Assembly: GCA_029560465.1 (NCBI GenBank)
Contig: JAKQKX010000045.1
Span: 152,260 to 216,259, forward strand
DNA length: 64,000 bases
DNA from: Candidatus Omnitrophota bacterium
GTDB lineage: Bacteria > Omnitrophota > Gorgyraeia > Zapsychrales > JANLHA01
Reading direction: 5' to 3'
Under the pieces are notes generated by a model. It was not told where the DNA came from and searched no databases. It was given only the letters and a program-made list of their open reading frames with translations. The translations under genes were made by a program, and so were the position numbers. Below are positions 1-43,590 of the stretch, one piece after another (within the stretch, counting starts at the first letter, position 1; the number at the start of each line of letters is the position of its first letter).

Positions 1-213
1 TGTGTCGTCCACCCCTCCGGTGTCCAGGAAGACCACCGGGCCGACGGGGATCAACTCCATCACTTTTTCAACAACGTCCGTTGTGGTCCCTGGGATGCTG
101 GACGTTATGGCGACGTCCTGTCCCGCGACCATATTCAGGAAACTGGATTTCCCGACGTTCGTTCGTCCGAACAAGCCTAATTGCAACCTTAACGATTTTG
201 GAGTCCTTGTCAT
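1..213 (-). CDS. hydF: [FeFe]-hydrogenase maturation GTPase HydF, N-terminal fragment (the gene runs off the left edge of the window)
   Basis: The minus-strand frame from ATG at 213 reads MTRTPKSLRLQLGLFGRTNVGKSSFLNMVAGQDVAITSSIPGTTTDVVEKVMELIPVGPVVFLDTGGVDD. This carries the G1 P-loop GxxNVGKSS, the G2 TTD and the G3 DTGG, typical of the HydF/EngA family. It is adjacent to hydA. The ORF track missed it because it is partial and in a different frame from the listed 68..256 ORF. Confidence 0.6.
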   Translation of the reverse strand, partial: MTRTPKSLRLQLGLFGRTNVGKSSFLNMVAGQDVAITSSIPGTTTDVVEKVMELIPVGPVVFLDTGGVDDT

Positions 214-262: not shown

Positions 263-646
263 TTATTTCACATATTTTTCAACGGCTGCCAGAAATTTCT
301 CCGGCTGAATCGGTTTTTCAATCACCGCTTTGACCGGCAACCAGACCTCATCCGGTTCATATTTAAACATCACTCCCGTCTCCTTGCGGATCCCCGTCAC
401 CACAATGACCGGGATATTCCTGGTGGAGGGCTCTTCGTGCAGACGGCGGGAAATATCAAAGCCTTCCGTCTCATGCGTCATCATGACATCCAGAAGGATA
501 AGGTTCGGATTCTCTGTTTTGGCCTTTTGAAAGCCCAATTCACCGTTAATGGCGTGAATCAATGTGTACCCTTTTGTGGCAACAAGGTCGGTCACGGCTT
601 GCGCAAAATCCTGGTCGTCATCAACCATCAATATTTTCTTTGCCAT
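263..646 (-). CDS. Stand-alone CheY-like receiver (REC) domain protein. The start is most likely MAKK at 646, which has an AAGGAGG RBS 6 nt upstream. The listed ORF extends to 661.
   Basis: Acidic pocket DDD, phospho-acceptor D in LILLDVMM, T in VVTGI and K in IEKPI are all present, with no output domain. It is a paralog of the N-terminus of the HydC fusion. The stop of hydA and the ATG at 661 overlap as ATGA. Confidence 0.8.
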   Translation of the reverse strand: MAKKILMVDDDQDFAQAVTDLVATKGYTLIHAINGELGFQKAKTENPNLILLDVMMTHETEGFDISRRLHEEPSTRNIPVIVVTGIRKETGVMFKYEPDEVWLPVKAVIEKPIQPEKFLAAVEKYVK

Positions 647-657
647 TCTGTCCTCCT

Positions 658-2403
658 TCATTTTTTATATTCTGGCCTCGGAATATATTTCGTATGCAGC
701 AGGTGATGCGCCTTTTCGCCCAGAGGCTCTTGCAAAAATTCGGCGTAAAGCTGCTTAATATAAGGATTCTCATGGCTGTAACGCACGCTGCACTGTTCGT
801 CATCATCATACAATCCTTGAGCCCTGGCCGCCCGCACTTCGTCGTTCACGCCATAAGGCTGCCCGCCACCGCCGACGCATCCGCCCGGGCAGGCCATGAC
901 CTCAATAAAATGGTACGGAACCGGTTCGCCCTTCTTTTGCGCCGTACGGACTTTATCTAACACATACTCCACGTTCAACAACCCGTGAGCCACCGCAATT
1001 TTTACCTCGGTGCCATGGATGAAAACCGAAGTTTCCTTCACGCCTTTCAGCCCCCGGACATTGCGGAAATTAACATCCTTAAGATTTTCTTTCGTGATAA
1101 GATAATACGCCGTGCGTAACGCGGCCTCCATCACTCCCCCCGTGGCGCCGAAAATGACCCCGGCCCCGGAATAATCCCCCATCAGATGGTCCGGGTCTTC
1201 CTCCGGGAGCTCATTAAAATCAATCCCCATCTGTTTAATCATACGGATTAATTCCCTCGTCGTCAAGACGATATCCGTATCCTGGAATCCAGAGGCAGAC
1301 ATATCATTGCTGCGGGTGATCTCGTATTTCTTGGCGGTGCAGGGCATGATCGACACCATAAAAATCTTGGCCGGATCTATCCCTGCCTTCTGGGGATAAT
1401 ACGTCTTCGCCAGCGTCCCCATCATGCCCTGGGGCGACTTGGCCGAGGAGAAATGCTCGATCATGTCGGCCTGAAATTTCTCCATAAAATCCACCCAGGA
1501 CGGGCAGCACGTGGTGATAAGAGGCAGCGGCCCTTTTTTATAAAGGAACCGCTCCACAAATTCGCTGGCCTCCTCCATAATGGTGACATCCGCCGAAAAA
1601 TTCGTATCAAAAACCGCCTTAAACCCCATGCGCCGCAGGAGCGCATAAATTTTCCTGGTCAGGTTCGTCCCCGGGGGAAACCCGAACCCTTCTCCAAGGG
1701 CGACCCGCACAGAAGGGGCGATCTGGACAATGCAGATTTTATCAGGATCCTGCAGGGCGTCCCAAACCTGTTTCGTCTGGTCGTGTTCAAAAATCGCGCC
1801 GGTCGGGCAATGTGCGGAGCACTGGCCGCAGCGGACGCAAGGCGAATCACTCAAGCGGATGTCTCCAGCCGGAGCGAAACGGGTGTTCACCCCCCTTTCC
1901 AGGAACGACAGGGCCCAAACGTTCTGGGTCTCCTGGCAGACGCTCACACAACGGCCGCATTTGATACACTTGCTCGGCTCCAGGACAAGCGTCCCCGTGC
2001 TGGTGTCTTTCGGGATATCCCGGATGATCTTGTCAAAAGATTCCTCCCGGATCCCGAAATCCGCCATAATTGTCTGCAACTCACAATTTTTATTGCGGCC
2101 GCAGATCAGGCAGTCGTTCGGATGATTGGATAAAATCATTTCTATGACCGTGCGCCGTACCGCAACGATTTCCGGATCATGGGTGATGATATCCATCCCG
2201 TCTTCAATCGGCGTACAACAGGACCGCAGCATCTTCGCCGTCCCTTTCACTCTGACAATACAGATCCCGCAGGCCGCCGTCGGCTTGATGTCAGGATGGT
2301 AACACAACGTCGGGATCTTCACCTGAATAAGCTTAGCGGCTTCCAGGATCGTCATCCCCGGCTCAAACTCCACAGGGATATTATTAATAACCGCTTTTCC
2401 CAT
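658..2403 (-). CDS. hydA: [FeFe]-hydrogenase catalytic subunit HydA (group A3, bifurcating-type, ~580 aa)
   Basis: N-terminal 2Fe-2S ferredoxin-like Cys (CYHPDIKPTAACGIC) plus 4Fe-4S motifs (CIKCGRCVSVC, CVRCGQCSAHCP). H-cluster motifs L1 TTCCPSW, L2 MPCTAKKYE and L3 EVMACPGGCVGGGGQP are present. Confidence 0.92.
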   Translation of the reverse strand: MGKAVINNIPVEFEPGMTILEAAKLIQVKIPTLCYHPDIKPTAACGICIVRVKGTAKMLRSCCTPIEDGMDIITHDPEIVAVRRTVIEMILSNHPNDCLICGRNKNCELQTIMADFGIREESFDKIIRDIPKDTSTGTLVLEPSKCIKCGRCVSVCQETQNVWALSFLERGVNTRFAPAGDIRLSDSPCVRCGQCSAHCPTGAIFEHDQTKQVWDALQDPDKICIVQIAPSVRVALGEGFGFPPGTNLTRKIYALLRRMGFKAVFDTNFSADVTIMEEASEFVERFLYKKGPLPLITTCCPSWVDFMEKFQADMIEHFSSAKSPQGMMGTLAKTYYPQKAGIDPAKIFMVSIMPCTAKKYEITRSNDMSASGFQDTDIVLTTRELIRMIKQMGIDFNELPEEDPDHLMGDYSGAGVIFGATGGVMEAALRTAYYLITKENLKDVNFRNVRGLKGVKETSVFIHGTEVKIAVAHGLLNVEYVLDKVRTAQKKGEPVPYHFIEVMACPGGCVGGGGQPYGVNDEVRAARAQGLYDDDEQCSVRYSHENPYIKQLYAEFLQEPLGEKAHHLLHTKYIPRPEYKK

Positions 2404-2433: not shown

Positions 2434-4242
2434 CTATCGATCAATCGCTTTAAATTTACACACCTCATAACACTGCCCGCAATGGATGCATTTCTCCTGA
2501 TGAATCAAATACGGCTCCTCACGGCTGCCGGTGATCGCCCCAGCGGGGCAATGGCGCAGGCATAACCCGCAGCGCTTGCAACGCTCGCTCACAATGACAT
2601 AATGATAAAGCCCCCGGCATTTACCCGCCGGGCAGGTTTTATCATGCACATGGCGGTCATATTCCTCTTTAAAATACTTCAGCGTGGACAGGACCGGATT
2701 GGCAGCGGTTTGCCCGAGCCCGCACAGCGACGCCTTCTGCATGGCCAGCGAAAGCCGGCGCAACTTCGCGATGTCGTCCTCCTCGGCCTTCCCTTCGGCG
2801 ATCTTCTCAAGGATCCTCAGCATTTGAGTTCCCCCGATCCGGCAGGGGGCGCACTTCCCGCAGGACTCCTCGACGCAAAAACCCAAATAAAATTTGGCGA
2901 TATCGATCATGCAGTCATCTTCGTCCATGACAATCATCCCTCCGGACCCCATAATCGAGCCCAGCTTCTGAAGATTCTCATAATCAACGGGGGTATCAAG
3001 CAGGTGCGCCGGGATGACTCCGCCCGAAGGGCCACCGGTCTGCACCGCTTTGATTTGCTTGTCATTCAAAATCCCTCCCCCGATATCGTAAACGATCTCC
3101 CGGATGGTCATCCCCATGGGCACTTCAATCAGTCCGGTGTTCTTCACTTTCCCGGTCAGGGCAAAGACCTTGGTCCCTTTCGATTTCTCGGTACCGATCG
3201 ACGCAAACCAGCTGCCGCCGTTATGAATAATCGCCGGGATATTCGCCAGCGTTTCAACGTTATTGATCACAGTCGGTTTTCCCCACAACCCTTTAACCGA
3301 CGGATAGGGAGGCCGCGGGACAGGGCAGCCCCGTTTACCTTCGATAGAAGCGATCAGCGCCGTCTCTTCCCCGCAAACAAACGCGCCCGCGCCCAAACGG
3401 ACTTCCAAATTAAAAGAAAAAGACGTCCCGAGGATATTCTGCCCCAGAAACTTCCTGTCCCGTGCCTGCTCGATGGCCTTGCTGATCCGTTTAATCGCCA
3501 GCGGATATTCCGCCCGGATATAAAGGAAACCCTTGGTCGCCCCGACGGTATAACCGGCAATCATCATCCCTTCCAGCACGGAGTGCGGGTCCCCCTCGAG
3601 GACACTGCGGTCCATGTAAGCCCCCGGGTCCCCCTCGTCGCCATTACAGATAATATATTTCTGATCCGCTTCGACTTTTCTGGCGAAATTCCATTTCATC
3701 CAGGTCGGGAACCCCCCGCCGCCCCTTCCCCTCAGGCCGCTGGTTTTCAACTCTTCAACCACGTCCTCCGCCGAATAATCTTTCAACACTTTCTTAAACG
3801 CGGCATAGCCGTCATGATCAATATAATCGTCAATATTTTCGGGATCAATCACCCCGCAGTTCCGAAGCACGATCCGCACCTGCTTGGGGGAGACTTCCAT
3901 GACATACTTCTTAAGGGCCTCATGCGAGGGATTCGCCTCCACGATGTGCTTCTGCAAGATTTCAAGCGCAATAGACGGAGTCACCCCCCCGTACAAAATC
4001 CGGGGCCCCCCGGGAGAGGAGACCTCCATCAAAGGTTCGGCATAACACATCCCGGCACAACCGCACTGCGTCAGGGAAACTTCGAGCCCTTGCGCCGCGA
4101 TCTCTTTTTCTAAAGCCTTAAAAACATCTCTGGCTCCGGCGGCAATTCCGCAGGAGCTCAGGCCGACCGCGATTTTGTTTATTTTTTTGTTCTTTGCGGC
4201 ATTCGAGTCCGCTGAACGGACAGAAAATTTCATAAACTTCAC
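2434..4242 (-). CDS. hydB: NuoF-like NAD(P)H/FMN subunit HydB of a multimeric [FeFe]-hydrogenase
   Basis: N-terminal thioredoxin-like 2Fe-2S (SSCGIAAG...CGCAGMC). NuoF core: GRGGGGFPT, NGDEGDPGAY, ESCGKCAPCR. Two C-terminal 4Fe-4S ferredoxin motifs (CKRCGLCLRHCP, CIHCGQCYEVC). Confidence 0.9.
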   Translation of the reverse strand: MKFMKFSVRSADSNAAKNKKINKIAVGLSSCGIAAGARDVFKALEKEIAAQGLEVSLTQCGCAGMCYAEPLMEVSSPGGPRILYGGVTPSIALEILQKHIVEANPSHEALKKYVMEVSPKQVRIVLRNCGVIDPENIDDYIDHDGYAAFKKVLKDYSAEDVVEELKTSGLRGRGGGGFPTWMKWNFARKVEADQKYIICNGDEGDPGAYMDRSVLEGDPHSVLEGMMIAGYTVGATKGFLYIRAEYPLAIKRISKAIEQARDRKFLGQNILGTSFSFNLEVRLGAGAFVCGEETALIASIEGKRGCPVPRPPYPSVKGLWGKPTVINNVETLANIPAIIHNGGSWFASIGTEKSKGTKVFALTGKVKNTGLIEVPMGMTIREIVYDIGGGILNDKQIKAVQTGGPSGGVIPAHLLDTPVDYENLQKLGSIMGSGGMIVMDEDDCMIDIAKFYLGFCVEESCGKCAPCRIGGTQMLRILEKIAEGKAEEDDIAKLRRLSLAMQKASLCGLGQTAANPVLSTLKYFKEEYDRHVHDKTCPAGKCRGLYHYVIVSERCKRCGLCLRHCPAGAITGSREEPYLIHQEKCIHCGQCYEVCKFKAIDR

Positions 4243-4263: not shown

Positions 4264-5118
4264 TTATTCATATTGTGATAGAATGTCAACAATATCCTTC
4301 TTATTGACCTTCCCGTATATTTTGTCATCAATCATCATGACGGGAGAAAGGCCACAGCACCCTAAGCACCGGACGGGTTGAATGAAAAAAAGCCCGTCCG
4401 GCGTGGTTTCGCCCTCATTCACATGCAGGAACTCCTTCAGTTCCTGAAGGAGTTCCGCCCCGCCTTTCAAATAACAGGCCGTTCCAATACACACGGAAAT
4501 CAAATGTTTTCCAGGCGGCGTCAATTTAAAATAATTATAAAAAGTGATCACTTCATAGATACGGGCCAACGGGATGTCCAGGATGCGGCTCAACTCAAAC
4601 GACACTTCCCGGGGTATGTAGCCGTGGATGTTCTGAATTTCATGCAGGATCATAATCAGGTTGCCGTCCATGCCCTTCCATTTGGAAGCGATGTCAGCAA
4701 TTCCGCCGACAAATTGGCGATGCTCCTCTCCGGAACGACGGATAAACATCTGCACGACTTTGAGCAGACGTTCTGGAGTCACCGGTTTTTCCAACACCAT
4801 CTTCACAGGCAGCGCCTGCTCATCCGGCTTGAGTTCAACGGGGAAACTTTTGTCCCGCTTCGCCCCGGTAATCATAACCACCGGGATATCCTGAACCGCC
4901 GCGTCCAGGGCGAACGCCTTGGCGGTTTCCGCTCCTTCCGTCTCATACGTCATCATCATGTCCAGCAGGACCAAATCCGGAGAGACGTCTTTCACCTTTT
5001 GAAAACCTTCCAGGCCATTCGTTGCGGAGAGCACCTCGTAACCGCTCGCTTCCAGCAGGAGTGTGGTCGCCTCAAGAAAATCCTGGTCATCGTCAATAAG
5101 CAAAATTTTGTTTTTCAT
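4264..5118 (-). CDS. hydC: HydC-like NuoE-type [2Fe-2S] subunit with an N-terminal CheY-like receiver domain (REC::NuoE fusion)
   Basis: Residues 1-120 form a REC (DDD, LVLLDMMM, VMITGA, LEKP). Residues ~150-284 are a NuoE/24 kDa thioredoxin-like fold with 2Fe-2S ligands (SVCIGTAC ... RCLGCCG). Gene order C-B-A is as in hydCBA operons. Confidence 0.85.
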   Translation of the reverse strand: MKNKILLIDDDQDFLEATTLLLEASGYEVLSATNGLEGFQKVKDVSPDLVLLDMMMTYETEGAETAKAFALDAAVQDIPVVMITGAKRDKSFPVELKPDEQALPVKMVLEKPVTPERLLKVVQMFIRRSGEEHRQFVGGIADIASKWKGMDGNLIMILHEIQNIHGYIPREVSFELSRILDIPLARIYEVITFYNYFKLTPPGKHLISVCIGTACYLKGGAELLQELKEFLHVNEGETTPDGLFFIQPVRCLGCCGLSPVMMIDDKIYGKVNKKDIVDILSQYE

Positions 5119-5142: not shown

Positions 5143-6978
5143 TTATGCTGAGGGAATCGTAAATCGGAACTGGTTCCCTTCCAACCCCGGCTCAACGGTT
5201 AATGTCCCGCCGTGCCGCAGAATGATCTCTTTCGTAATAAAAAGGCCGATCCCTGTCCCCTTCACTTTTTCCATTCCCCGGTAAACCACGCGCGAAAATT
5301 TTTTAAACAACTTTTGCCTGTCGACTTCCGCGATCGGCATCCCGTCATTGTAAACGGTAACTTCCACACCGTTATCGACGGCGTGCGCCCGGACACGGAT
5401 TTCTCCGTTTTCCTTGCCGTACTTCACCGCGTTGCTCAAGAGGTTGTTAACAACAATCTGCATGAGGCCGGGATCCGCGTGAATCATAAGATCCTGGGGA
5501 ACGTCGCAAGAGATCCTCATCTTCTTTTCGTCCGCCTGCTGGGTGAACGTGTCGACCGCGCTTTCCAGGACATGCTCTTTAAGCAGGATATCCTGTTTAT
5601 CGATCGTCATTTCATCCTTCTCGATACGGCTGAGGTTCAAAAAATTCTTGACCGTGATCGCGAGATAATCCAAGTTCCGGGCCATGGACTTCAAAACCCG
5701 GCTTTGTCTTTCGTTCACCGGCCCCAGGATGCCTTTCTGCAACAAATAGGTATTCAGGACGATCGAGGACAGGATCCCCTTCAGTTCATGCGACACAAAG
5801 CCGATCAGGTCCAGATAACGCTTGTTCAGCACAGCCAACTTGTCATTGGTTTCCGCCAGGGTCTGCTCCCGCTCCGAAAGTTTTTCAATCATGTCGTCAA
5901 AGGCCAGAGTTAACGTCTTGACTTCTTTAATATTAGAGTCGGCCGGGACCAGGGTTTTCATGTCTCCCTGTGCGATTTTTTTGCTCTTCTCCGCCAAGGC
6001 GGTCAAAGGCCGGATCATAACATTCGTCAATAAAAACGAAACCCCCAACGTGGGCAAAGCCGTCAAAAGGATGATGGTCAAGAGGCTCAAAAACATCCTG
6101 TTTTGAACCGCGACAAACGGCTTTTCCAGGATCCCGACGTAAAGAATCCCGATAATCTTCCCCCGGATATCTTTGATCGGCTCATAGGCCGTCAAGTACC
6201 AGTCGGTGACCACAAAGGCCCGGTCACTCCAGGTCTTCTTCTGTTCCACGACTTTATGATACACTTCCTCGGAAACTTGCGTGCCGATCGCCCGGCGCCC
6301 ATCATCGTCCAGGACATTCGTCGCCACGCGGATATCACCCTGAAAGATAGTGACGGTTCCAACCGGTTTGCCTTCGTATAATTCCCGGTCAAAGACCGCA
6401 TTGTTGATCCGGTCAATCAAGGCAAAATTTTTATTGATGATCCAACCGCCGCACAGGACTTTATCGATCCGCCCTTGGTGATCCAAAAACGGCCGGGCAT
6501 ACTCAAGCCCTAGCGCCGTGTCCAAAACCTTGACATCAGATTTACGGGCCTTGGGGGTGATCTGTCGGACCTTGATCGTGAAATCCTGGGGCTGCTCTTT
6601 TAATTCCGCGGAAGACAACACCCGGGTCCCCCCAAACGTGCGGCCCTCCTGAAACGCGGCCTGGACGATTTCGCTAGGAAAAGTTTGGGCCCGGTCGCGG
6701 TCAATCCAGTACAGATAATCTAAATGTAAACTGTTTTTTAAAGCCTGAATATCGTCATCCCTTTCAATCAGGGTAAACGTCAGGGCGATTGATTTCAGAT
6801 AATCCTCATAAACACTCCGGACCGTTTTTAATTTCTGCTGCACTTCCTTTTGCGCTTCATCAACGACAGCCGTCTTAAGCACAAAAAAACTGTACAGGGA
6901 CATGCAAACGCCCCAAAAAATGATCAACGCCAGTAAAAGCAGGACAATATACGTTCGCAGACGGATAACGGCCTTCAT
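5143..6978 (-). CDS. Sensor histidine kinase: TM - extracytoplasmic Cache-like sensor (~260 aa) - TM - HAMP - HisKA - HATPase_c
   Basis: TM1 at aa 10-33 and TM2 at ~297-320. Cache-type segment with DWYLTAYEP and GILYVGI. H-box GFVSHELKG. N-box LLSNAVKYG. G1 VYNDGMPI. G2 GTGIGLFI. The start ATG overlaps the rex stop as ATGA. Confidence 0.85.
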   Translation of the reverse strand: MKAVIRLRTYIVLLLLALIIFWGVCMSLYSFFVLKTAVVDEAQKEVQQKLKTVRSVYEDYLKSIALTFTLIERDDDIQALKNSLHLDYLYWIDRDRAQTFPSEIVQAAFQEGRTFGGTRVLSSAELKEQPQDFTIKVRQITPKARKSDVKVLDTALGLEYARPFLDHQGRIDKVLCGGWIINKNFALIDRINNAVFDRELYEGKPVGTVTIFQGDIRVATNVLDDDGRRAIGTQVSEEVYHKVVEQKKTWSDRAFVVTDWYLTAYEPIKDIRGKIIGILYVGILEKPFVAVQNRMFLSLLTIILLTALPTLGVSFLLTNVMIRPLTALAEKSKKIAQGDMKTLVPADSNIKEVKTLTLAFDDMIEKLSEREQTLAETNDKLAVLNKRYLDLIGFVSHELKGILSSIVLNTYLLQKGILGPVNERQSRVLKSMARNLDYLAITVKNFLNLSRIEKDEMTIDKQDILLKEHVLESAVDTFTQQADEKKMRISCDVPQDLMIHADPGLMQIVVNNLLSNAVKYGKENGEIRVRAHAVDNGVEVTVYNDGMPIAEVDRQKLFKKFSRVVYRGMEKVKGTGIGLFITKEIILRHGGTLTVEPGLEGNQFRFTIPSA

Positions 6979-7631
6979 GCTTTGCCCCCCCGATTATTCA
7001 GGGCATTAACAAAATACAACAGGAATTCCAGTTCAACCCCTAAATTCACGTCATGGATAACGCATGACCGTTGAGCCATAAGATGAACCGGGGCAAAATT
7101 CAACACGCCTTCAACCCCTCCCCGGACCATAACGTCCAAAACCAGTTGTGCCGCGTCAGCCGGAACCGCAAGGATGCCCACTTTAATATTGCGGTTGGAA
7201 ATATAGCCCTCGCATTCTGAGAATGGATAAACCGGGATATTCCCCTGAACACCGCATTTCACGGGATCAATGTCAAACCCCGCTCTTATACAGATCCCCT
7301 CTTTTTCAAACCCTTTATAATTGCTGAGGGCAATCCCCAAGTGTCCCATGCCGGCTATTATAACATCCTGACCGGGTTGGGAACCGAGAATTCTCTGAAT
7401 TATACCCAAAAGATCAGAGACACTATAACCGCCTCTTTTGTTCCCCATGATGCCAAATAACGAAAAATCCTTCCGCACTTGCGCGGCCGTAATCCCGATC
7501 GCGTCTGCCAGTTCATTAGAGTAAACCCGGTCAGAACCGGAAGCTAAAACTTTCTTAAGCACATATTTATATTGCACCAACCGAGGGATACTATTTTTAT
7601 TAACTCCTGCGATCTTCTGAGGCAAATTCAT
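6975..7631 (-). CDS. rex: Redox-sensing transcriptional repressor Rex (NADH/NAD+ sensor)
   Basis: Winged-helix N-terminus with AAQVRKDFSLFG, a Rossmann fold GMGHLGIAL, and C-terminal LNFAPV...VELEFLLYF. Collinear with the B. subtilis/Thermus Rex family. It is the first gene of the hydrogenase transcription unit. Confidence 0.85.
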   Translation of the reverse strand: MNLPQKIAGVNKNSIPRLVQYKYVLKKVLASGSDRVYSNELADAIGITAAQVRKDFSLFGIMGNKRGGYSVSDLLGIIQRILGSQPGQDVIIAGMGHLGIALSNYKGFEKEGICIRAGFDIDPVKCGVQGNIPVYPFSECEGYISNRNIKVGILAVPADAAQLVLDVMVRGGVEGVLNFAPVHLMAQRSCVIHDVNLGVELEFLLYFVNALNNRGGKA

Positions 7632-7646: not shown

Positions 7647-7664
7647 TTGTGAAAACTATCACAT
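7647..7664. promoter_or_regulatory. Candidate Rex operator (ROP) TTGTGAAAACTATCACAT in the rex 5' leader
   Basis: Matches the Rex consensus TTGTGAA-n4-TTCACAA at 12 of 14 specified positions. It lies 16 bp upstream of the rex ATG (7631), between the upstream terminator and the rex RBS AAGGGG. Confidence 0.45.
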
Positions 7665-7804: not shown

Positions 7805-8725
7805 TCACAACCGTTGCAAAAACGACGTTAAATTAATTTTTTGATGGGACAGACCCAGCTTGCGCCGGATATTTTTCCGGTGCATTTCTATGGTGTTAAA
7901 CGACAGTCCCAACAACCCGGCCATTTCTTTCCCGCTCAAGCCGCTTTTAATCATATGACAAATCTCAATTTCCCGGGTCGTCAACCCATATCCAGGACAG
8001 GACAATTTCCTGCCAAAAGCCGACGTCATCTGTTCAAGAGCTTGCTGAAGAAGAATAAGATTTTTTTCTGATTTATTTTTGAGTTTTATCTTTTTAACCA
8101 TGGGTAATAAAACATGCTGGACATTCCCCATCACGTTTTCCTGGATCTTTCTTTTTTCCGTCTCGACCTGTTCCAGGATATCCTGCAAATCCACGTTCTT
8201 CTGTTCCAAAGCCGCCTTCTGCTTCCCAAGGCGCTGTTCCGACTCTTTTAACGCCGCTTCCACCTTTTTAATATCTGTGACATCCCGGATAATTTCAATC
8301 GCCCCGACAACCTGTCCACCGGGGTCACGCAAAAGACTGGCTCGTCCCCAAATGAACACGTTTTTCCCCTTCAGGCGGGCAGTCGTGGTCTCCGCTTCCA
8401 GGGCGTCTATCGTCTTCTTCGTAATCCGATAACGCTGCGCAACTTCTTCTTGCCCCTCCAGGAGAAGATCAATGAGAATCGGGCGGCGCTGGCCGTAGAA
8501 AGGAAGCGCGTATTCATAGCGCCCTTTCCCCAGGATCGCTGCCCGGGGCACCCCGGTTAACCGTTCCATTTCCCGATTCCAGGCGACCACGATTTTCTCC
8601 CGGTCAATAACAAAACAGGAATCCGGAAGACAATCCACAAAATTAGAGAATGGCCCGGAAAAATCCTGAAAGGCTTCCGGACACGGGGACTTCCGTTTCG
8701 ACTTTTTAAGCATCGGCTTAAGCAT
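7805..8725 (-). CDS. PAS-domain / coiled-coil / LuxR-type HTH transcriptional regulator
   Basis: N-terminal PAS-like region, central coiled coil (EAALKESEQRLGKQKAALEQKNVDLQDILEQ) and a C-terminal GerE/LuxR HTH (LTTREIEICHMIKSGLSGKEMAGLLGLSFNTIEMHRKNIRRKLG). Confidence 0.8.
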   Translation of the reverse strand: MLKPMLKKSKRKSPCPEAFQDFSGPFSNFVDCLPDSCFVIDREKIVVAWNREMERLTGVPRAAILGKGRYEYALPFYGQRRPILIDLLLEGQEEVAQRYRITKKTIDALEAETTTARLKGKNVFIWGRASLLRDPGGQVVGAIEIIRDVTDIKKVEAALKESEQRLGKQKAALEQKNVDLQDILEQVETEKRKIQENVMGNVQHVLLPMVKKIKLKNKSEKNLILLQQALEQMTSAFGRKLSCPGYGLTTREIEICHMIKSGLSGKEMAGLLGLSFNTIEMHRKNIRRKLGLSHQKINLTSFLQRL

Positions 8726-9847: not shown

Positions 9848-11332
9848 TTATCTTTCCATAATCCAAATCACCGGAAAAACCCGCCCCCGGCCTTTTGATG
9901 AATAATACCTCATACGGCCCGAAGCCGCAACCTCACGAAACCCCTCTTGCTTGAGAAAACGCAGCAAAGACGGGTCATACGGGTCCACAAGCAGATTATC
10001 AGGCCGGCCCCAATTATCCAAAACAACCATCATGGAGCCGTGATGGGTTCCCATCAACGCATCGCGGGCTTCCTCCTGCAACGGCCAGTGTATAATTTGC
10101 CCCCCAAAATCCTTAAATTCAATCCCGGTATAATACCGCACCAAATCCGGCGAGCTGGCGACAATAAGGGTGTCTGGGGTCGCGGCCTTTTTTATCTCCT
10201 GCGCCGCAGCCTGAAACCCGACATAAAAATGGGTCTCCTCCTCCAACATAGATGCCAGTTCAGGATAAGCGAAAACAGCAAAAGCGCAAACATATAAAAC
10301 AACCATCACATTGGCCAGCCGCTTTCCTTCCTGGGAACGGAAAATGCTTCGCGCGCCTTGGTACATCCCGAAAGACAATAAAATGAGAAGCGCGGGAAGA
10401 TAAACCATGCTATACCGGCTGGTTTTCTCGGCGGCCAAGGAAAAAATGGCGGCGAAAACAAGAACCCACAGAACCAAAAGCAAACAAGCCCTCCTGTCCT
10501 TTTTCCATGAAAAAAAAACGCCGGCAGCGCAGAAGAACAAGGCAAAAGGGAAATCCAACAACAGCGGGAGGTCCAGCCCATAGAACCAGGCCGAAGAATT
10601 CCCGGATGTATTAATAACAACCGCAGACACGTTCCCCCAGGCCCGCCCTAATTGAATATAATTATTGATAAGCAGCCCCATCACAACGGCGAGAATGATT
10701 CCAAGGGGGAGGAAAACTTTTTGAAGCCGCTGTTTGATTCCCAACGCATCAAAACCCGCCAGGTAAAAAATAAAGATAACCGGGATAACCAACAACGCCG
10801 ACCACTTCAGGAGAATAGCCACGCACCCGGCGAGCCCGACCCTAAACCCGGAACAGGGGTCCGCCGACCGGCTCGCCCGGATAAGTTCGAAAGCCAGCCA
10901 CATCATAACGGTCATCAGCAACCCATCAATGAGAATTTTTGGTGAAAACTTAACATAAACACTATTGGTGGCCAGCAGGACCGCGCTTAAGAATCCCACG
11001 ACGGCATTAAACAGTTTCTTCCCAAGAGCATAAATCATCCCGATTCCGGACAAACTGATCAGGACGGCCATCAAACGGCAGCCAGCGAGCGACCGCCCGA
11101 AAACAGCCAAAAAAACTGAAAATAACGGCGGATGGGTGTTTATGATTCCCCTCGAAAAAAGGATGGAAGGGTTTTCCGCAATACGCTGCGCGTACCAGGC
11201 GTACTCGGCTTCGTCGGCCCACAAGCGTTCCGCGAATCCGTACCTCATCCTTAACTGCAGCGACATCAATAAAATCCCGGCCAGCAAAAAAAGCAGGACC
11301 GACTCCCTGAACGCAACATTGAATAATTTCAT
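9848..11332 (-). CDS. GT-C fold glycosyltransferase, ArnT/PMT family (COG1807-like)
   Basis: ~12 TM helices with the first-loop acidic motif RLWADEAEYAWYAQRI (the DE motif of PMT/ArnT) and a C-terminal soluble domain. Confidence 0.7.
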   Translation of the reverse strand: MKLFNVAFRESVLLFLLAGILLMSLQLRMRYGFAERLWADEAEYAWYAQRIAENPSILFSRGIINTHPPLFSVFLAVFGRSLAGCRLMAVLISLSGIGMIYALGKKLFNAVVGFLSAVLLATNSVYVKFSPKILIDGLLMTVMMWLAFELIRASRSADPCSGFRVGLAGCVAILLKWSALLVIPVIFIFYLAGFDALGIKQRLQKVFLPLGIILAVVMGLLINNYIQLGRAWGNVSAVVINTSGNSSAWFYGLDLPLLLDFPFALFFCAAGVFFSWKKDRRACLLLVLWVLVFAAIFSLAAEKTSRYSMVYLPALLILLSFGMYQGARSIFRSQEGKRLANVMVVLYVCAFAVFAYPELASMLEEETHFYVGFQAAAQEIKKAATPDTLIVASSPDLVRYYTGIEFKDFGGQIIHWPLQEEARDALMGTHHGSMMVVLDNWGRPDNLLVDPYDPSLLRFLKQEGFREVAASGRMRYYSSKGRGRVFPVIWIMER

Positions 11333-12839: not shown

Positions 12840-14414
12840 ATGCAAATAAAAATAAAACATCTGAATTCCCCGCTGCCCTTTTCAGCAGAAATATTCAAAG
12901 AGTTCCTATTCCCTCTTATCCTGGCCGCTTTAATGCTGTTTCACGGCCTGTCCCTCATAAGCAAAGGCCCCTACCATGTAGACTGTCTCGGGTTAACCGT
13001 GGCCGCCGAAAAATCGCTGGAGACCCACAAACTTCATTTTAACGCCGGACACGGATATCCGCTCATACTGTTCCTCAGCATAATTTTTATCAGCATAGCC
13101 AACGTTTTTAATGTCGCGGATCCGGTTACCGCTGTTAACTTTATGAACGTCTTTTTCAGCTCAATCAGCGTCATTCCCTTCTTCTTCTTCCTTAAAAACT
13201 TGTTTAACGCCAAGACCGCTATCCTGGCATCCCTGTTGTTATGCATTAACCCGCTCTTCCTATCCACGTCTATTTACGGCAACAGCCATTCTCCTTTTTT
13301 ATTTTTCATGTTCGCCTCCCTTGGGCTGCTCACGATTTTCTTCAAATCCCATTCGACGAAGCACCTGGCCTTAAGCGCCCTCTTTTTCGGCTTATCCGGG
13401 GCCGCCCGAATCCAGGACATGGCCGCCATGATTATCCCGATGAGCTTTCTTTATGTCCTTCTGGCCCACCATTCGCCGATGAGCGTCCCGCGCAAGAAAA
13501 CGACATTTTTCTCGAAGCGCTTTCTTCTGGCTGTCCTCCTGGCCCTGCTCACCCTAACGCTCTTTTATGCCGCGGTCTTCACGAGCCGAGGGGTGAATTA
13601 TTTTAATAAAGGGTTCTTTCAATACCGCCTGCTGGACCCTTTCGCAGGATTGATCTCTGAATATCTAAAAATAAGTTTCGATTATCTTATTTCCAATTTC
13701 TCCTACTTGGGCCTCCTGGTTGTTATCGGGGGATTGATTATCCTGGCTTTTGAAAGCCGGCAAAAATTCTGGTTCCTGCTGCTCTGGTTTACAATCCCCT
13801 TCTTAGCTTTCGGCAATTCATTCTTCATTACCCCCCGCTTTCTCTTAACGAGCTTTGTCGCCCTTGTCATCAGCCAGGGATATCTGTTTTCAAAACTAAT
13901 CTCGAACCGCTCAAAACCCGTTGATATCTGCGGGAAAGTCCTGTTCATTCTCGTAGTCATATTGTCTTATCACAATATTTATCCGACGCTGTCTTTCCGG
14001 CACCGCCATGACCTTCTGCCGGAATACGGCCGTTGGATAGCCCGCGTCACGGAGCCAAACGCCAAAATCATCGTGGGCGACGAAAGGGCGTTCATTCAAT
14101 ACTACGGGAACAGGGAGACCATCCATCAAATTGTCACCGACACGACATATTACCAACAACAGGAATCTTTACGGGAAGAACTGCGGGCTTATAAAAAAAA
14201 CCTGGACGCCCTGCTGGACAGCGGGGTCCCGGTCTATATCACGGAAAACGGCCTCTTAAGCAACAATGTCGGGCTCTTTTATTTCTTTATCACGAAATAC
14301 TATAATCTGAGGTACCAGGGGGAAGCGCCCTTCGAAGTATGGCATCGTCGGTGCCTCAAACATCTGGTCATCCGGATCAAACTCTACCGTCTCACCCCAA
14401 AACCGACCTCATAA
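12840..14414 (+). CDS. Polytopic membrane protein, putative GT-C-type glycosyltransferase
   Basis: More than 10 TM helices over the first ~370 aa, then a ~150-aa soluble C-terminal domain. This architecture resembles its neighbours. It is the only long plus-strand gene in this block. Confidence 0.45.
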   Translation: MQIKIKHLNSPLPFSAEIFKEFLFPLILAALMLFHGLSLISKGPYHVDCLGLTVAAEKSLETHKLHFNAGHGYPLILFLSIIFISIANVFNVADPVTAVNFMNVFFSSISVIPFFFFLKNLFNAKTAILASLLLCINPLFLSTSIYGNSHSPFLFFMFASLGLLTIFFKSHSTKHLALSALFFGLSGAARIQDMAAMIIPMSFLYVLLAHHSPMSVPRKKTTFFSKRFLLAVLLALLTLTLFYAAVFTSRGVNYFNKGFFQYRLLDPFAGLISEYLKISFDYLISNFSYLGLLVVIGGLIILAFESRQKFWFLLLWFTIPFLAFGNSFFITPRFLLTSFVALVISQGYLFSKLISNRSKPVDICGKVLFILVVILSYHNIYPTLSFRHRHDLLPEYGRWIARVTEPNAKIIVGDERAFIQYYGNRETIHQIVTDTTYYQQQESLREELRAYKKNLDALLDSGVPVYITENGLLSNNVGLFYFFITKYYNLRYQGEAPFEVWHRRCLKHLVIRIKLYRLTPKPTS

Positions 14415-37413: not shown

Positions 37414-40400
37414 TTAATTATAATTCAACAAGCTCAACTGATCTTTATCATCAAAGAAAAACTGAACGCCTGTTTTTTCCGATGGCTGGGGTTGACGTTT
37501 CTGTCTCTCTTCCTCAACCGGGACCCTGTGACCGCCCTGCGCCGGGGCTTCCCCCAAGTTTCTGCCCAGCAACATCGGCAGGTTCGGGATAGGCGTAATA
37601 TTGATAATGACCGGCACAAATCCGTCAATATTCATATCCCCAACAGGCTGTTGCGGCAGAGGCAGCGGGATGCCTTTATTATCCCGTTTGATCTGCAGGT
37701 TTAACAGAGCCGGGTTCAAATTGATACCGCCGAGGGGCGATGATTGCGCTTCCAGCTGGCCATTCAGGCGCTGCGCGAAATTCAGGACACCTCCGGCCGA
37801 AACACCCCTGGCCCGTCTTTCCGACCGGAGCAGCTGATTGAGCTGCCGGCCAGCGGTATTTCTCTCGATCGAGCCATTGACAAATCCGTCCAGCAACTCC
37901 CTGGTGGCGCGGTTCTGCAGTTGGAACTTGCCCATGGTTTTTTCCACGACCTGGACCGGAGAAGACACATCTTCTTCTGCGGCAAGGTCCGTTTCCGCCA
38001 ACGGGCCTGCCGTGAGTTCTATCTGCGCCATCGTGTCCATAACCTGCTGCAGGCGCAAAGCTTCTTCGGCCGGGGTGGTTTTCCCAAGCTCTTGTTCAAG
38101 CGCGAAATCCGAAAGAATCGCCCCAACTTCCTCTATAATACCGGCCGCTTCCTTGCGGATCTGCTCTAAAACAACCCGGTCTTCCACCGCTTCAGTTTCC
38201 ACCCTCTGGAGGACCGCTTCGACTTCATTCAAAAGGACATTCAATTTCTCCTTATTTTCCGCGGTCAATTGCAACGGAGATGATTGAGAAACCGTGACCA
38301 AATCCACCAGAGGCATCCTTTCCGCCCGCCCGGCCCCCAGCATCGTCATCTGCAAATCAAGGTCATTATCAATGGATAACGCGACGGAACTGTTGAACAC
38401 CGCGGCGGCCATCTTCAAAATCTGGTCCGCCTTTGCCTTGTCAATCCCATCGATCTCGGTCAATTTATTTTCCGCCTGGTCAAACTGACCGGCCCTCTCC
38501 AGGTCAATGGCCTCTTTTAACGCCCGGTACGAAACGGCGTCAAACAGGCCGTAACCGGCCGCCAAACTGGCGGGCAGCAACCGGAACATGGCGTCTTCTA
38601 TCGGGTAAGCCCCGTCCTGCCATTTAATGCCTATAATCCTGGCCGCCGGCCTTAACGGCGGCATGGCCTCCGGATATTTCAACTGATTGGCCAGCAAAAC
38701 CGTGATCGCCGAATAGGCCCAGGCGTCCTGAAGTCCATAAACTTCCCGGTCAACGGCCAGGACATCCCCGATCAGGTCCAGATCTTCCGTGTCCAGAGTA
38801 ATGCTCTGCAGAACCGGAGAAGATGAAGACAACTGGTCTTTTAAAGCGGCAATCGTGTCGAAATTAAACGGCTTTTCAACCACTTCAAGGAAAAGCCCGC
38901 TCTTCAACCCCGAGCCCTCGTCAACGACGGATAACCGCGCCATCTCCCGGCTGTCCCCAGTCATCAGCACGACCGGCACATCACGCTCGGAACGGATCGT
39001 CCGGGCCATCTGTTCCCCGTTCATCACCGGCATTTGCAGGTCAGTCACAACCAGGCCTATATCCGGATTCTCCCGGAACAGACTCAAACCCTCTTCCCCG
39101 TTGGCCGCGGTGATGATTTCCGCTTCGGTGAAGATATCACCCAACTCGTCCCGCAGCAACAACCTCATGCCGTCGTTGTCATCGACAACAAGAATTTTAT
39201 TAAGAGGAGAAGAAGCCAACCTGCCTTTTAAATCAATGACCGTCTTCAACTGATACGGCTTCTGAATGACTTCGGTGAAAATCCCGCTTTTCAGCCCCGA
39301 GGCCTCGTCCACTTTAGACAGCCGCTCCACTTCACTGTAGTTCCCGGATACCAGGACGACCGGAATATCACGCTCAGAACGGATCGTCCGGGCCATCTGT
39401 TCCCCGTTCATTGCCGGCATTTCAAGATCGGTAACCACGAGATCTATATCCGGATTCTCCCGGAACGTCCTCAACCCCTCTTCGCCGTTCACGGCTGTTA
39501 TAACTTCCGCCCCGGAGAAAATAGTACTAAAAACATCCTTGGTCAAATTTCTCACCTCTTCCGTGTCATCCACGACAAGGATCTTTTTGATGACAGGAGA
39601 AGAGAGAAGCGTGGCTCTGACGAGTTCCGGGATCACCCCCAACTCGGCGGCCACCGCCTCCGGCTCAAGCGACTGGCCCTGCTGACTGCGGGCCTCATAA
39701 TACTCCTTCACCACCGCAGGCGGCACCACCCGCCCGCCCATCAGCAAATCCCTCATCCTTTCCTGGTCCTGACCCCGGATCGGCAGAGGGTTTTCAATTG
39801 CCAACTCCACCAAATCCCGTGCTTGGGCAAAAATCAAACCCCGCACTTTATGCAACCAAACGGCAATGACGGCCACTTGTGACTGATAGACAATTTGCTG
39901 CACCACAAAGTTATCAAACGTCGTCAATCCCAACCCGTTTAACGTGCGCAATTTTTCTCGAATCTGTCCCAAGGCCTCTTCACGGAACGCGTCACCCCGC
40001 ACAGTAATATCACCCAAGCCCCCGGATGTTATTTCAATCAGCTCTTCCGCCTTTGCTTCCTGCTGAGCGCGCAATTCATCCGTCTCATACCCCCACATTT
40101 TAAACGCGTTCGCCACCTGCAAAGACACCCATGGCACCTTCCAGAACTGCCCGCGCTTGCGCACATCGGTGGATGAGGTGTCCATCGGCTGGGTGATGGT
40201 TGACAAGCCCAGCCTTGGTAATCCTCGCGCGTTCAACTCCCCTGCCAGCTTCGCCTCATACGCTTGAAGGAGCGTTTCATCAACCTCTTCACCGACACGC
40301 TGGCTAAAAATAATATTCATTTTCTGAATATCCTTGCGCGCCTGAAACCCTCTTAAGCCCTGCTCTCCGGCCGTCATTTTGTTGAGGAGTTTACGCGGCA

Positions 40401-43400: not shown

Positions 43401-43590
43401 GGCCTAGAATCCCTTTCCGGGGTTCCGCGGCCGAAAGTGTCACAGGAGGCAGAATGAGTCCCGCTAAGAAAGAATAACTCATAAATGACACCAAAAGTTT
43501 ATACGGCCATTGGGTACGACAGTTTCGAAAATAGCTAAACATGTGCGTTCTCCTCCTGATTTTTGAGAATTTGAAAATGAAATACGACAA
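37414..43590 (-). CDS. Giant (2058 aa) multidomain protein. It has an N-terminal signal peptide or anchor, a central HxGH/ISSxxIR nucleotidyltransferase-like domain, two tandem CheY-like receiver domains and a long C-terminal region.
   Basis: N-terminus RRR...LLVSFMSYSFLAGLILPPVTLSAAEP. Motifs LFWPMKGDPWQSGHIWMI and LSSLSIREAF correspond to the (H/T)xGH and ISSTxIR motifs of cytidylyl/adenylyltransferases. REC1 is KILVVDDTEE...DLVVTDLEMPAMNGEQ...VVLVSG...IQKP. REC2 is KILVVDDNDG...GLVVTDLQMPVMNGEQ...VVLMTG...VEKP. An S/P/A/V-rich linker lies at ~aa 430-480. Confidence 0.75.
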   Translation of the reverse strand: MSYFIFKFSKIRRRTHMFSYFRNCRTQWPYKLLVSFMSYSFLAGLILPPVTLSAAEPRKGILGLPMPGSMVLKSDVYTPACLKGIKIDPENPLKFDFIIDSGKDELTGKDLEEESNKLIKYFLATLTIPEEDLWVNLSPYESDRIIPEGFGFTEMGRDLLAQDYMLKQLVASLIYPEQDLGQEFWQRVYDRAAKEYGTTNIPINTFNKVWIVPQDALVVEHNGSAFVVDSHLKVMLEEDYLALEKNLDNQKLGTTKITEDYVKTLSKVSSDVVREILLPEIEKEVNEGKNFAKLRQIYNSMILATWYKQNLRATLLGQVYVNKGKIKGVDVDDREVKQKIYDQYLEAFRKGVYNYIREDYDMSTKQVIPRKYFSGGFDASAMSSAVRAVDLEDIPLSSPLRARVDQGLNISSPVVQVSAILAENPSATLAAKSVVTAADIEAPDVVASPVVVSPEILKLYQDNIEEFQRVALNYGDRSSYADANRAVAESALARENKILGVLFWASRNALPADIAGKIGAQLTALVDVANEIVEESYSFRLAEALMKAEDALLEKLNKADLALLDQAALSSPIAAGTIRFQDLSPFGQQYAELRVRHYLGYVVGSQGRGGVTEAQAAAFLSRLNADISRMVQGGRTLKEIGEHYFPELSDETRAFVEHSRTQYEFNRKSNARVMADVLIASLSASETDRYDRATLKAEPITFPSRWPQLDVFTALERIVRERGQVVVRPSSPVSQQFAQLSTDEVVGDLARNFGQSYDTMMSLVPFLAETTGVSEERILQELNDDTYAVFADQLAQVAQLVKAREIFPEQVNVRVSMEEPEGTPIKLTGERTVPNVLFWPMKGDPWQSGHIWMILEAIIKNKIDKVVIMIDNSDPTRKPDLSSLSIREAFTWVIFEKYLKPFVQYTTLPKEMLDLFSADGETVIFYLAELNANQPMNLFYGAGSDHANLYALKKVAITEADFMSTIAGIENAVERQRIQQMFADAGYINAEGQPVESAFQALVDRLKERGYLDTEKGKPVSGKFSAYLEEGKPEELLLSDLEGTGLETEDARRVVYQALFAPDVPRKLLNKMTAGEQGLRGFQARKDIQKMNIIFSQRVGEEVDETLLQAYEAKLAGELNARGLPRLGLSTITQPMDTSSTDVRKRGQFWKVPWVSLQVANAFKMWGYETDELRAQQEAKAEELIEITSGGLGDITVRGDAFREEALGQIREKLRTLNGLGLTTFDNFVVQQIVYQSQVAVIAVWLHKVRGLIFAQARDLVELAIENPLPIRGQDQERMRDLLMGGRVVPPAVVKEYYEARSQQGQSLEPEAVAAELGVIPELVRATLLSSPVIKKILVVDDTEEVRNLTKDVFSTIFSGAEVITAVNGEEGLRTFRENPDIDLVVTDLEMPAMNGEQMARTIRSERDIPVVLVSGNYSEVERLSKVDEASGLKSGIFTEVIQKPYQLKTVIDLKGRLASSPLNKILVVDDNDGMRLLLRDELGDIFTEAEIITAANGEEGLSLFRENPDIGLVVTDLQMPVMNGEQMARTIRSERDVPVVLMTGDSREMARLSVVDEGSGLKSGLFLEVVEKPFNFDTIAALKDQLSSSSPVLQSITLDTEDLDLIGDVLAVDREVYGLQDAWAYSAITVLLANQLKYPEAMPPLRPAARIIGIKWQDGAYPIEDAMFRLLPASLAAGYGLFDAVSYRALKEAIDLERAGQFDQAENKLTEIDGIDKAKADQILKMAAAVFNSSVALSIDNDLDLQMTMLGAGRAERMPLVDLVTVSQSSPLQLTAENKEKLNVLLNEVEAVLQRVETEAVEDRVVLEQIRKEAAGIIEEVGAILSDFALEQELGKTTPAEEALRLQQVMDTMAQIELTAGPLAETDLAAEEDVSSPVQVVEKTMGKFQLQNRATRELLDGFVNGSIERNTAGRQLNQLLRSERRARGVSAGGVLNFAQRLNGQLEAQSSPLGGINLNPALLNLQIKRDNKGIPLPLPQQPVGDMNIDGFVPVIINITPIPNLPMLLGRNLGEAPAQGGHRVPVEEERQKRQPQPSEKTGVQFFFDDKDQLSLLNYN

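Follow-up and report, generated by a model that had tools for sequence, protein, structure and literature searches.

A predicted electron-bifurcating [FeFe] hydrogenase of Candidatus Omnitrophota with a receiver domain fused to its HydC subunit

The DNA analysed here, referred to as the window, is a 64-kb stretch of contig JAKQKX010000045.1 from a Candidatus Omnitrophota bacterium that carries on its minus strand the gene order rex, Cache-type histidine kinase, REC~hydC, hydB, hydA, free REC paralog and hydF. All coordinates of these genes refer to the minus strand. The gene REC~hydC (4264..5118), in which a receiver domain (REC) precedes the HydC subunit of a predicted [FeFe] hydrogenase, is a single unbroken open reading frame (ORF) that begins with an ATG start codon, contains no frameshift and encodes 284 amino acids. 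The identical 284-amino-acid protein was detected on 17 contigs from several metagenomes.

The receiver of the deduced protein covers residues 1-125 (4744..5118, with the Asp53 codon at 4960-4962), whereas residues 139-284 (4264..4704) represent a NuoE-like HydC/BfuC module that consists of a helical bundle and a thioredoxin-like [2Fe-2S] domain with the codons of the ligand cysteines within 4354-4491. Both halves exceeded their Pfam thresholds, as was expected from a sequence-only reading of the window: Response_reg (PF00072) matched residues 5-122 with 58.6 bits at a cut-off of 30.2, and 2Fe-2S_thioredx (PF01257, IPR002023) matched residues 142-283 with 157.1 bits at a cut-off of 24.8. The statement of the same reading that every residue needed for phospho-acceptance is present was borne out with correct residue numbers, namely the acidic pocket D9/D10/D11, D53 in LVLLDMMM, T84 in VMITGA and K111-P112 in LEKP. 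Since pseudo-receivers are defined by the loss of at least one phosphotransfer residue, the receiver of the window protein does not belong to them. The five cysteines of REC~HydC (C210, C215, C251, C254 and C255) are all located outside the receiver. Four cysteines of the NuoE type had been recognized before, but the motif C-x4-C ... C-x2-C-C assigned to them has to be corrected: according to the alignment to solved HydC/NuoE chains the [2Fe-2S] ligands are C210, C215, C251 and C255 in the pattern Cx4C-x35-Cx3C, and C254 is an additional, non-ligating cysteine that is replaced by Ala in 7t2r_C. The protein did not reach the cut-offs of the NCBIfam equivalogs HoxE (143.2 versus 224) and NuoE NF005722 (130.2 versus 141) nor that of TIGR01958 (124.3 versus 142.4), which indicates a HydC-type relative and not a subunit of complex I or of a Hox enzyme.

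The genes downstream of REC~hydC specify the catalytic core of the enzyme. The hydB (BfuB) gene (2434..4242) encodes a protein of 602 amino acids with the Pfam domains Complex1_51K, SLBB, NADH_4Fe-4S and two copies of Fer4, comprising an N-terminal [2Fe-2S] domain, a flavin mononucleotide (FMN)/NADH site, the NuoF [4Fe-4S] cluster, a His/Cys hinge and a C-terminal 2x[4Fe-4S] ferredoxin domain. The hydA gene (658..2403) encodes the [FeFe]-hydrogenase catalytic subunit with N-terminal iron-sulphur (Fe-S) domains and the H-cluster domain; it scored 796.9 bits with NCBIfam FeFe_hydrog_A6 (cut-off 765; NADH-dependent group A6 / A3) and matched the Pfam families Fe_hyd_lg_C (303.8 bits) and Fe_hyd_SSU. 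In the Bfu family, BfuB is defined by the NuoF FMN site, the SLBB domain, the NuoF 4Fe-4S cluster, the C-terminal 2x[4Fe-4S] domain and the N-terminal [2Fe-2S] domain (PMC9304861). The domain set of HydB and the end-to-end match between its residues 23-600 and the solved B subunits of bifurcating enzymes (9bov_B at 4e-238, followed by 7t2r_B, 7q4v_B, 8a6t_B and 7p5h_B) accordingly place the enzyme, on sequence grounds, among the Bfu-type electron-bifurcating HydABC [FeFe] hydrogenases as defined in PMC9304861. The HydC half agrees with this assignment: the HydC/BfuC proteins 7t2r_C (NiFe-HydABCSL), 8a6t_C (T. kivui), 7q4v_C (A. woodii) and 7p5h_C (T. maritima) matched residues 139-284 over the full length with E = 1e-30 to 1e-40, 7t2r_C being the best solved relative (1e-40), followed by the others in the order given. 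The solved proteins and the HydC of the window have in common the Cx4Cx35Cx3C motif, the four-helix bundle with the thioredoxin-like domain and the partner genes, a bifurcating-type hydB followed by hydA. In contrast, a receiver is not part of any HydC/BfuC/NuoE protein that has been solved or characterised. With regard to hydB, the gene is present as two ORFs (198 + 381 amino acids) in a JGI contig of the same organism (L001 10877..12682) and intact in the window, L003 and L004, so that a mistake in the sequencing or assembly of the JGI contig probably accounts for the split. Many relatives (L006-L008, L010 and others), on the other hand, genuinely encode this N-terminal [2Fe-2S] domain in a separate gene (~116 amino acids).

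The gene immediately upstream of REC~hydC (5143..6978, ending 24 nucleotides before it) encodes a sensor histidine kinase of 611 amino acids. Its layout comprises a first transmembrane segment (~10-34), an extracytoplasmic sCache_3_3 domain (117 bits), a second transmembrane segment (~295-320), a HAMP domain, a HisKA domain (32.4 bits) and a HATPase_c domain (76.5 bits), all four domains being Pfam matches, and the characteristic kinase motifs are represented by the H-box SHELK at His397, the N-box at N516 and the G2 box GTGIGL. Of the features that mark a classical two-component system, a kinase with an H-box histidine and an ATPase domain is thus found next to a receiver, and a DNA-binding response regulator is not found. 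The operon contains a second receiver gene between hydA and hydF (263..661; the start codon is probably the ATG at 646, giving 127 amino acids), which encodes a free receiver of 127-132 amino acids, a single-domain paralog of the receiver of HydC with 43% identity over 127 amino acids (E = 4e-39), a Response_reg score of 55.6 bits and all phospho-acceptor residues. No DNA-binding domain was detected in REC~HydC or in the free receiver, and among the products of the operon only Rex possesses one. A search of the 64-kb window with the two receivers of the operon revealed one further receiver-bearing ORF only, a giant ORF of 2058 amino acids. As this search found no receiver-bearing ORF in the window besides the giant one and Rex is the sole DNA-binding product of the operon, the enzyme subunit itself is the obvious candidate for the output. 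With respect to the giant ORF (37414..43590, minus strand), Response_reg was the sole Pfam match, in two stretches with the best at residues 1337-1422 (100 bits), and no recognisable domain was found by Pfam outside of them.

A homology search in 5.8 billion proteins (E <= 1e-10) yielded 1912 matches, and the domain content was deduced from the best 120 clusters. All of these 120 clusters represent two-domain proteins with 99-52% identity to REC~HydC and lengths of 277-317 amino acids, and the named members belong almost exclusively to Candidatus Omnitrophota/Omnitrophica, with one 'Ca. Aureabacteria'. Counted over 121 family members, the four ligand cysteines C210, C215, C251 and C255 are invariant (121/121), as is K111 (121), and D11 (115), T84 (113), D53 (110) and D10 (109) are retained in most proteins. 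The minority without Asp53 carries N53 together with G10 (P0112, P0109, P0118), H53 (P0114-117, P0120) or E53 (P0028, P0049), and this subclade falls under the definition of pseudo-receivers.

The presence of Asp53 was compared with that of the kinase gene in 80 species-representative loci and in the loci of selected homologs, which were annotated by BLAST and phmmer with the window's own proteins. An orthologous kinase of the Cache-HAMP-HisKA-HATPase type (44-82% identity) is encoded immediately upstream of the fusion gene in all 12 independent fused loci with an intact Asp53, i.e. in the window (= L001-4), L005, L006, L008-L011 and L013-L017, whereas it is missing upstream in all four fused loci in which Asp53 is replaced, namely L007 (N53 and G10), L012 (E53 and A10), L089 (E53) and L090/L091 (H53 and A84). 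The locus L093 (P0087, N53) was excluded from this count, as its contig is too short upstream to judge the kinase. The distribution of 12/0 versus 0/4 corresponds to a value of ~5e-4 in a Fisher test that is uncorrected for phylogeny; since the losses are confined to roughly three lineages, the real support for co-variation is weaker than this figure, yet the pattern in these sequences appears clear. The matches listed in a search of metagenome contigs with an alignment of the Asp53-less variants included no further fused loci of this kind and were nearly all plain NuoE loci, apart from the two distant formate-dehydrogenase-type fusions L138 and L152.

The gene content of other relatives supports the view that receiver and kinase belong together. 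The nearest plain HydC orthologs, which are 65-69% identical to the NuoE half, are encoded in Omnitrophota operons that contain neither a receiver nor the kinase (L018-L023, L026 onward), and this indicates that both elements travel together as an add-on module. Split forms, in which a separate receiver gene of 123-127 codons is located immediately upstream of a plain nuoE gene, occur in L024, L025 and L039 and also in the second hyd operons of L008 and L013. The free receiver gene in the interval between hydA and hydF is likewise present in L003-L006, L010, L015 and L017; after hydA it was found in 6 of the 12 kinase-positive loci and in none of the three kinase-negative loci with enough downstream sequence. 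Taken together, the coupling of kinase and Asp53, the plain orthologs without either element, the split forms and the distribution of the free receiver indicate that receiver and kinase constitute one functional module on HydC, in which Asp53 is kept only along with the kinase. On these comparative grounds, the receiver of REC~HydC is probably a genuine phospho-acceptor partnered with the adjacent kinase.

Several of these relatives show further peculiarities. The second hydrogenase operons of L008 (741..5348) and L013 (1136..5763) lie directly upstream of the fused one and comprise rex, a 123-amino-acid receiver, nuoE (158-160 amino acids), a short NuoF (407-409 amino acids) and a HydA of 631-665 amino acids; the short NuoF lacks the N- and C-terminal Fe-S domains and is of the non-bifurcating type, and the association of receiver and HydC is therefore not limited to bifurcating enzymes. 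Tandem hydrogenase clusters with several receivers are present in L024 (48..13399), L025 and L039, the order of the L024 type being kinase, HydB (1069 amino acids), HydA, NuoE, REC (140 amino acids), REC (127 amino acids), plain NuoE, HydB-N, HydB, HydA and REC. The nuoE-adjacent receivers of these three loci are 54-55% identical to the free paralog versus 44-46% to the fused receiver, which hints at the origin of the fusion. The only kinase-positive locus without an intact receiver is L021 (1700..2545) on a contig of a Ca. Susulua stagnicola metagenome-assembled genome (MAG), where the orthologous kinase gene is followed by a scrambled stretch, an in-frame stop codon and a plain NuoE; the scrambled stretch consists of a HydB-N-like peptide joined to the last ~25 residues of a receiver and represents either a decayed receiver or a chimeric assembly.

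The connection between the two halves of REC~HydC was deduced from an AlphaFold2 model that was calculated with an alignment of 31 sequences (mean predicted local distance difference test, pLDDT, of 84.9; predicted TM-score, pTM, of 0.68). The modelled receiver contains the elements beta1-alpha1 through beta4, followed by beta5-alpha5, and alpha5 forms a single helix of 32 residues (115-146, encoded at 4681..4776; pLDDT ~86-90) that runs straight from the receiver into the four-helix bundle of HydC. The spacing between K111 and W147 is 36 residues in 118 of the 121 family members and 37 residues in the other three, while the sequence in the middle varies. Such a helical connector of constant length would be expected for a mechanical transmission of the receiver state. 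In a Foldseek comparison the HydC half matched 9mqx_C, 7t2r_C, 8a6t_C, 7q4v_C and 7p5h_C with a probability of 1.00 and E ~1e-15. The best match of the receiver half in the Protein Data Bank (PDB) was TM RR468 (4ja2/3dge_C; E ~1e-11). No PDB chain covering both halves was found by Foldseek, the longest alignment comprising 156 columns.

The combination of a receiver with a redox subunit had been regarded as rare, and this holds for the literature but not for the sequence collections, in which the best 120 of the 1912 matches are all fused and at least 12 further clusters have the same architecture. At the 50% identity level the whole fused family collapses to one representative, and at least 12 other representatives likewise combine REC and 2Fe-2S_thioredx, in addition to one with the order REC-REC-NuoE. 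The named members of these more distant fusions are Thermodesulfovibrionales, Dissulfurispiraceae and Deltaproteobacteria/Pseudomonadota MAGs, and their IMG label reads 'NADH:ubiquinone oxidoreductase subunit E/CheY-like chemotaxis protein'. Their genetic contexts vary: L094 shows the order sCache_3_3 kinase, NtrC-type regulator, REC-REC protein, REC~NuoE-NuoF and HydA-like gene; downstream of the REC~NuoE fusions of L092, L138 and L152 (30-35% identity) lie genes for a split HydB-N, a NuoF and a molybdopterin (formate-dehydrogenase-type) subunit of 820-840 amino acids; and the fusion of L095 is located among DRTGG, HATPase_c_2 and PHP genes and a short [FeFe]-hydrogenase-like gene with the H-cluster domain only. 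By this comparison of sequences, the REC-BfuC architecture recurs across phyla and across Bfu enzyme types, i.e. [FeFe] hydrogenase and formate dehydrogenase. In L092 the receiver scores weakly, and PHP and small HATPase_c genes are present nearby.

The structural work on related enzymes provides a framework for a possible role of the receiver. The HydC [2Fe-2S] cluster C1 lies beside FMN on a thioredoxin-like domain that swings, and a role of this movement as gate of the low-potential ferredoxin branch has been proposed (PMC10021017, PMC9304861). Katsyv et al. distinguished a HydC-in state, with C1 13-17 Å from FMN, from a HydC-out state, with C1 15-18 Å from B3/B4, and suggested that electrons reach the ferredoxin branch by means of this swing (PMC10021017), while Schut et al. 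described C1 as 'the gate or switch' between the low- and mid-potential paths (PMC9304861). The N-terminal bundle of HydC is located near the HydB/HydA interface in the published structures (PMC10021017, PMC9304861). The suggestion of the sequence-only reading that phosphorylation gates electron flow between HydB and HydA is at odds with these structures, as C1 lies off the chain from FMN via B1 and HydA to the H-cluster (PMC10021017, PMC9304861); any phospho-effect on electron flow would more likely be directed at the bifurcation gate or at the way in which HydC is seated on HydB.

On balance we lean towards the interpretation that REC~HydC is the HydC/BfuC subunit of an electron-bifurcating hydrogenase with a phosphorylatable N-terminal receiver and serves as the cis output of a dedicated two-component system. 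The membrane-bound kinase would detect an extracytoplasmic ligand through its Cache domain, autophosphorylate on His397 and pass the phosphoryl group to Asp53 of REC~HydC; it would probably also phosphorylate the free paralogous receiver, which could act as competitor, sink, second output or trans-acting regulator. Through the rigid helix with its conserved length, a change at the alpha4-beta5-alpha5 face might then reach the four-helix bundle by which HydC sits on HydB, and either the position of HydC on HydB or the swing of its thioredoxin-like C1 domain between the in and out states might shift as a result. The NADH/ferredoxin-coupled H2 reaction would thereby be tuned or switched post-translationally, and this phospho-control would be layered on the Rex-dependent (NADH/NAD+) transcriptional control of the same operon. 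The phosphotransfer itself, the direction of its effect and the structural route to the enzyme are what we infer. That phosphorylation modulates the enzyme post-translationally is slightly favoured, whereas the specific route through the HydC gate is a tentative suggestion of rather low probability. The most extensive version of the interpretation, according to which a His-Asp system ends on the HydC/BfuC gate, phospho-Asp53 re-tunes bifurcation and the design was adopted repeatedly across phyla and Bfu types, may apply but is doubtful.

A number of observations weigh against the proposed role as phosphorylated output. Phosphorylation and a possible effect on activity are proposals that come from sequence comparison, and the co-variation comprises 16 loci with ~3 independent losses and no phylogenetic correction. 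Control by the kinase would call for stoichiometric phosphorylation of an abundant metabolic enzyme, a demand that is unusual in two-component signalling. Moreover, the receiver is atypical: its Pfam score of 58.6 bits is modest, it has a 27-residue beta4-beta5 segment (20 to 27 residues across the family), the residues 85-106 that usually form alpha4 are irregular in the model (pLDDT 66-70), and Val occupies the position K-3 in place of an aromatic residue. Finally, the receiver is kept at the same linker length after the loss of Asp53 and kinase, which shows that it also has some role that is independent of phosphorylation.

Signalling in the reverse direction can be considered as an alternative. 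REC~HydC might be an input or modulator, such that the redox state of the HydC cluster (NADH/FMN) alters the kinetics of receiver phosphorylation or dephosphorylation or the binding of the kinase; in this way the kinase would be informed of the redox status by the hydrogenase, and the real output would lie with the free receiver or an unlinked regulator, in analogy to FixT. The second receiver paralog in the same operon is in line with such feedback, an Fe-S-binding receiver that controls its kinase is already known (PMC7078487), and the NtrC-type regulator and REC-REC protein between kinase and REC~NuoE in L094 demonstrate that a transcriptional output can coexist with the fusion. However, the Fe-S cluster of REC~HydC resides in the HydC domain, separated from the acidic pocket by ~90 residues in the sequence, and the receiver has no cysteines. 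The free receiver is missing in about half of the kinase-positive loci, and no DNA-binding response regulator lies nearby, the giant ORF being the only other hit of the window search with the two receivers. Our analysis of these points makes the feedback explanation unlikely.

A mainly structural function of the receiver, as an assembly, oligomerisation or stabilising module of HydABC in which phosphorylation is irrelevant or vestigial and the kinase uses another partner, appears a little less probable still. The receiver would then behave like a pseudo-receiver. This would account for the conservation of the receiver and of the exact linker length in the N53, E53 and H53 members without kinase, and the low Pfam score and the irregular alpha4 also speak in its favour. 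A mainly structural function does not account for the full D/D/D/T/K set in the window protein and in ~90% of the family members or for the strict coupling of Asp53 to the adjacent kinase, and the nearest plain HydC orthologs function without a receiver, so that the receiver is unneeded for assembly as such. The third alternative concerns the phosphoryl donor. Many receivers autophosphorylate with acetyl-phosphate, and if this were the main donor for REC~HydC, the hydrogenase would be tied to acetate-forming flux, with the kinase acting chiefly as phosphatase or modulator. A fermentative or acetogenic lifestyle has been predicted for Omnitrophota with A3 hydrogenases (PMC10066038), and a metabolite would more easily than a kinase phosphorylate an abundant enzyme stoichiometrically; yet the kinase-less loci have lost Asp53 instead of keeping it for acetyl-phosphate, which renders an acetyl-phosphate sensor very improbable. 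An artefact, i.e. two separate genes joined by a frameshift or misassembly, can be dismissed with near certainty despite the split gene pairs of L024, L025 and L039, because independent samples yielded 17 contigs with the same protein and the fused architecture, including a linker of fixed length, recurs in more than 120 homolog clusters, and the sequence-only reading had rightly treated the two halves as one gene.

Response regulators with enzymatic output are represented by the methylesterase CheB, the GGDEF proteins PleD and WspR, the HD-GYP protein RpfG and PP2C-type proteins. In these regulators, an N-terminal receiver controls a C-terminal effector without DNA-binding function in cis and the kinase is encoded alongside, an organization that REC~HydC shares. 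Unlike the outputs of the CheB/PleD/RpfG type, which are self-contained enzymes, the output of REC~HydC is an Fe-S electron-transfer subunit that works only inside a multi-subunit redox complex. The free paralog and the split receivers of L024, L025 and L039 are of the same kind as the target-binding single-domain receivers CheY, DivK, CpdR and TM RR468, whereas the receiver of the window protein is covalently tethered to its presumed target via a rigid helix. FixT of Caulobacter is an Fe-S-binding single-domain receiver that inhibits its kinase (PMC7078487) and thus resembles REC~HydC in the combination of receiver fold, Fe-S cluster and two-component signalling, but in FixT the receiver itself binds the cluster, whereas that of REC~HydC is carried by a distinct NuoE-type domain belonging to a metabolic enzyme. 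Signalling proteins encoded along with hydrogenase genes, with an involvement of Rex, are also found in the system of the sensory [FeFe] hydrogenase HydS/HfsB, with PAS domain and Ser/Thr kinase and phosphatase, and in the H2 sensor HoxBC-HoxJ-HoxA (PMC5707799). These systems respond to H2 or redox state and presumably exert their effect on gene expression or via Ser/Thr phosphorylation, whereas the phosphorelay proposed for the window is of the His-Asp type, would end on a structural subunit of the enzyme and has an extracytoplasmic sensor domain.

No description of a receiver fused to HydC or NuoE was found in the literature on Omnitrophota, Hydrogenedentota, the Bfu family and response-regulator outputs, and it may be described elsewhere; the domain pair is already visible in automatic annotations. 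Both the enzyme family and the signalling domain are known, while their combination, on a subunit whose mechanism is debated, appears to be undescribed, and no paper on such a fusion is known to us. Electron bifurcation by flavin and Fe-S centres in HydABC/Bfu enzymes is central to anaerobic energy conservation, and its mechanism is a matter of debate, especially the question whether access to the ferredoxin branch is controlled by the mobile C1 domain of HydC. If the proposed phospho-control of HydC is true, it would provide an experimental handle on this gate, a test bed for competing mechanistic models and the first natural allosteric switch known on the bifurcating Bfu core. It would also add a redox-enzyme subunit as a new class to the response-regulator outputs and wire an extracellular cue to H2 metabolism without a transcriptional step, which is relevant to the poorly understood and possibly partner-dependent physiology of the Omnitrophota. 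The current gene names 'NAD(P)H-dependent oxidoreductase subunit E' or 'response regulator' hide the link between the two functions. The comparative support for a functional module is strong, and the mechanistic steps are proposals for organisms that are uncultivated.

The first gene of the operon, rex (6975..7631), encodes a redox-sensing (NADH/NAD+) transcriptional repressor that was identified by the NCBIfam Rex equivalog NF003996 (206.6 bits versus a cut-off of 138) and by the Pfam domains Put_DNA-bind_N and CoA_binding; its stop codon and the start of the kinase gene overlap by 4 nucleotides. The Rex-operator-like palindrome TTGTGAAAACTATCACAT is located at 7647..7664, 16 nucleotides upstream of the rex start codon, and represents the sole match with at most two mismatches to TTGTGAA-N4-TTCACAA in the 64-kb window (0.29 expected). 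The motif TGTGA-N6-TCACA is present just upstream of rex in eight relatives (L001-3, L005, L006, L010, L012, L014), and in L007, which has no rex gene at this place, it is found directly upstream of REC~hydC. In view of the lone Rex box in the window and its recurrence in related loci, the transcription of the operon is very probably under Rex control.

At the other end of the operon, hydF, encoding the GTPase for H-cluster maturation, is cut by the edge of the window, and only its 5' part (1..213) with the translation MTRTPKSLRLQLGLFGRTNVGKSS... is present. The full counterparts in L001 and L003 contain the HydF_dimer and HydF_tetramer domains and are followed by genes for radical-SAM maturases. 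The rex operon is directly preceded by a gene for a PAS-LuxR(GerE) regulator that lacks a receiver (7805..8725, minus strand), and this arrangement is syntenic in L001, L002 and L005. The region upstream of the operon is flanked by two genes for membrane glycosyltransferases of the PMT_2 family (dolichyl-phosphate-mannose type) at 9848..11332 on the minus strand and 12840..14414 on the plus strand, the labels being Pfam labels taken from the gene table of L001.

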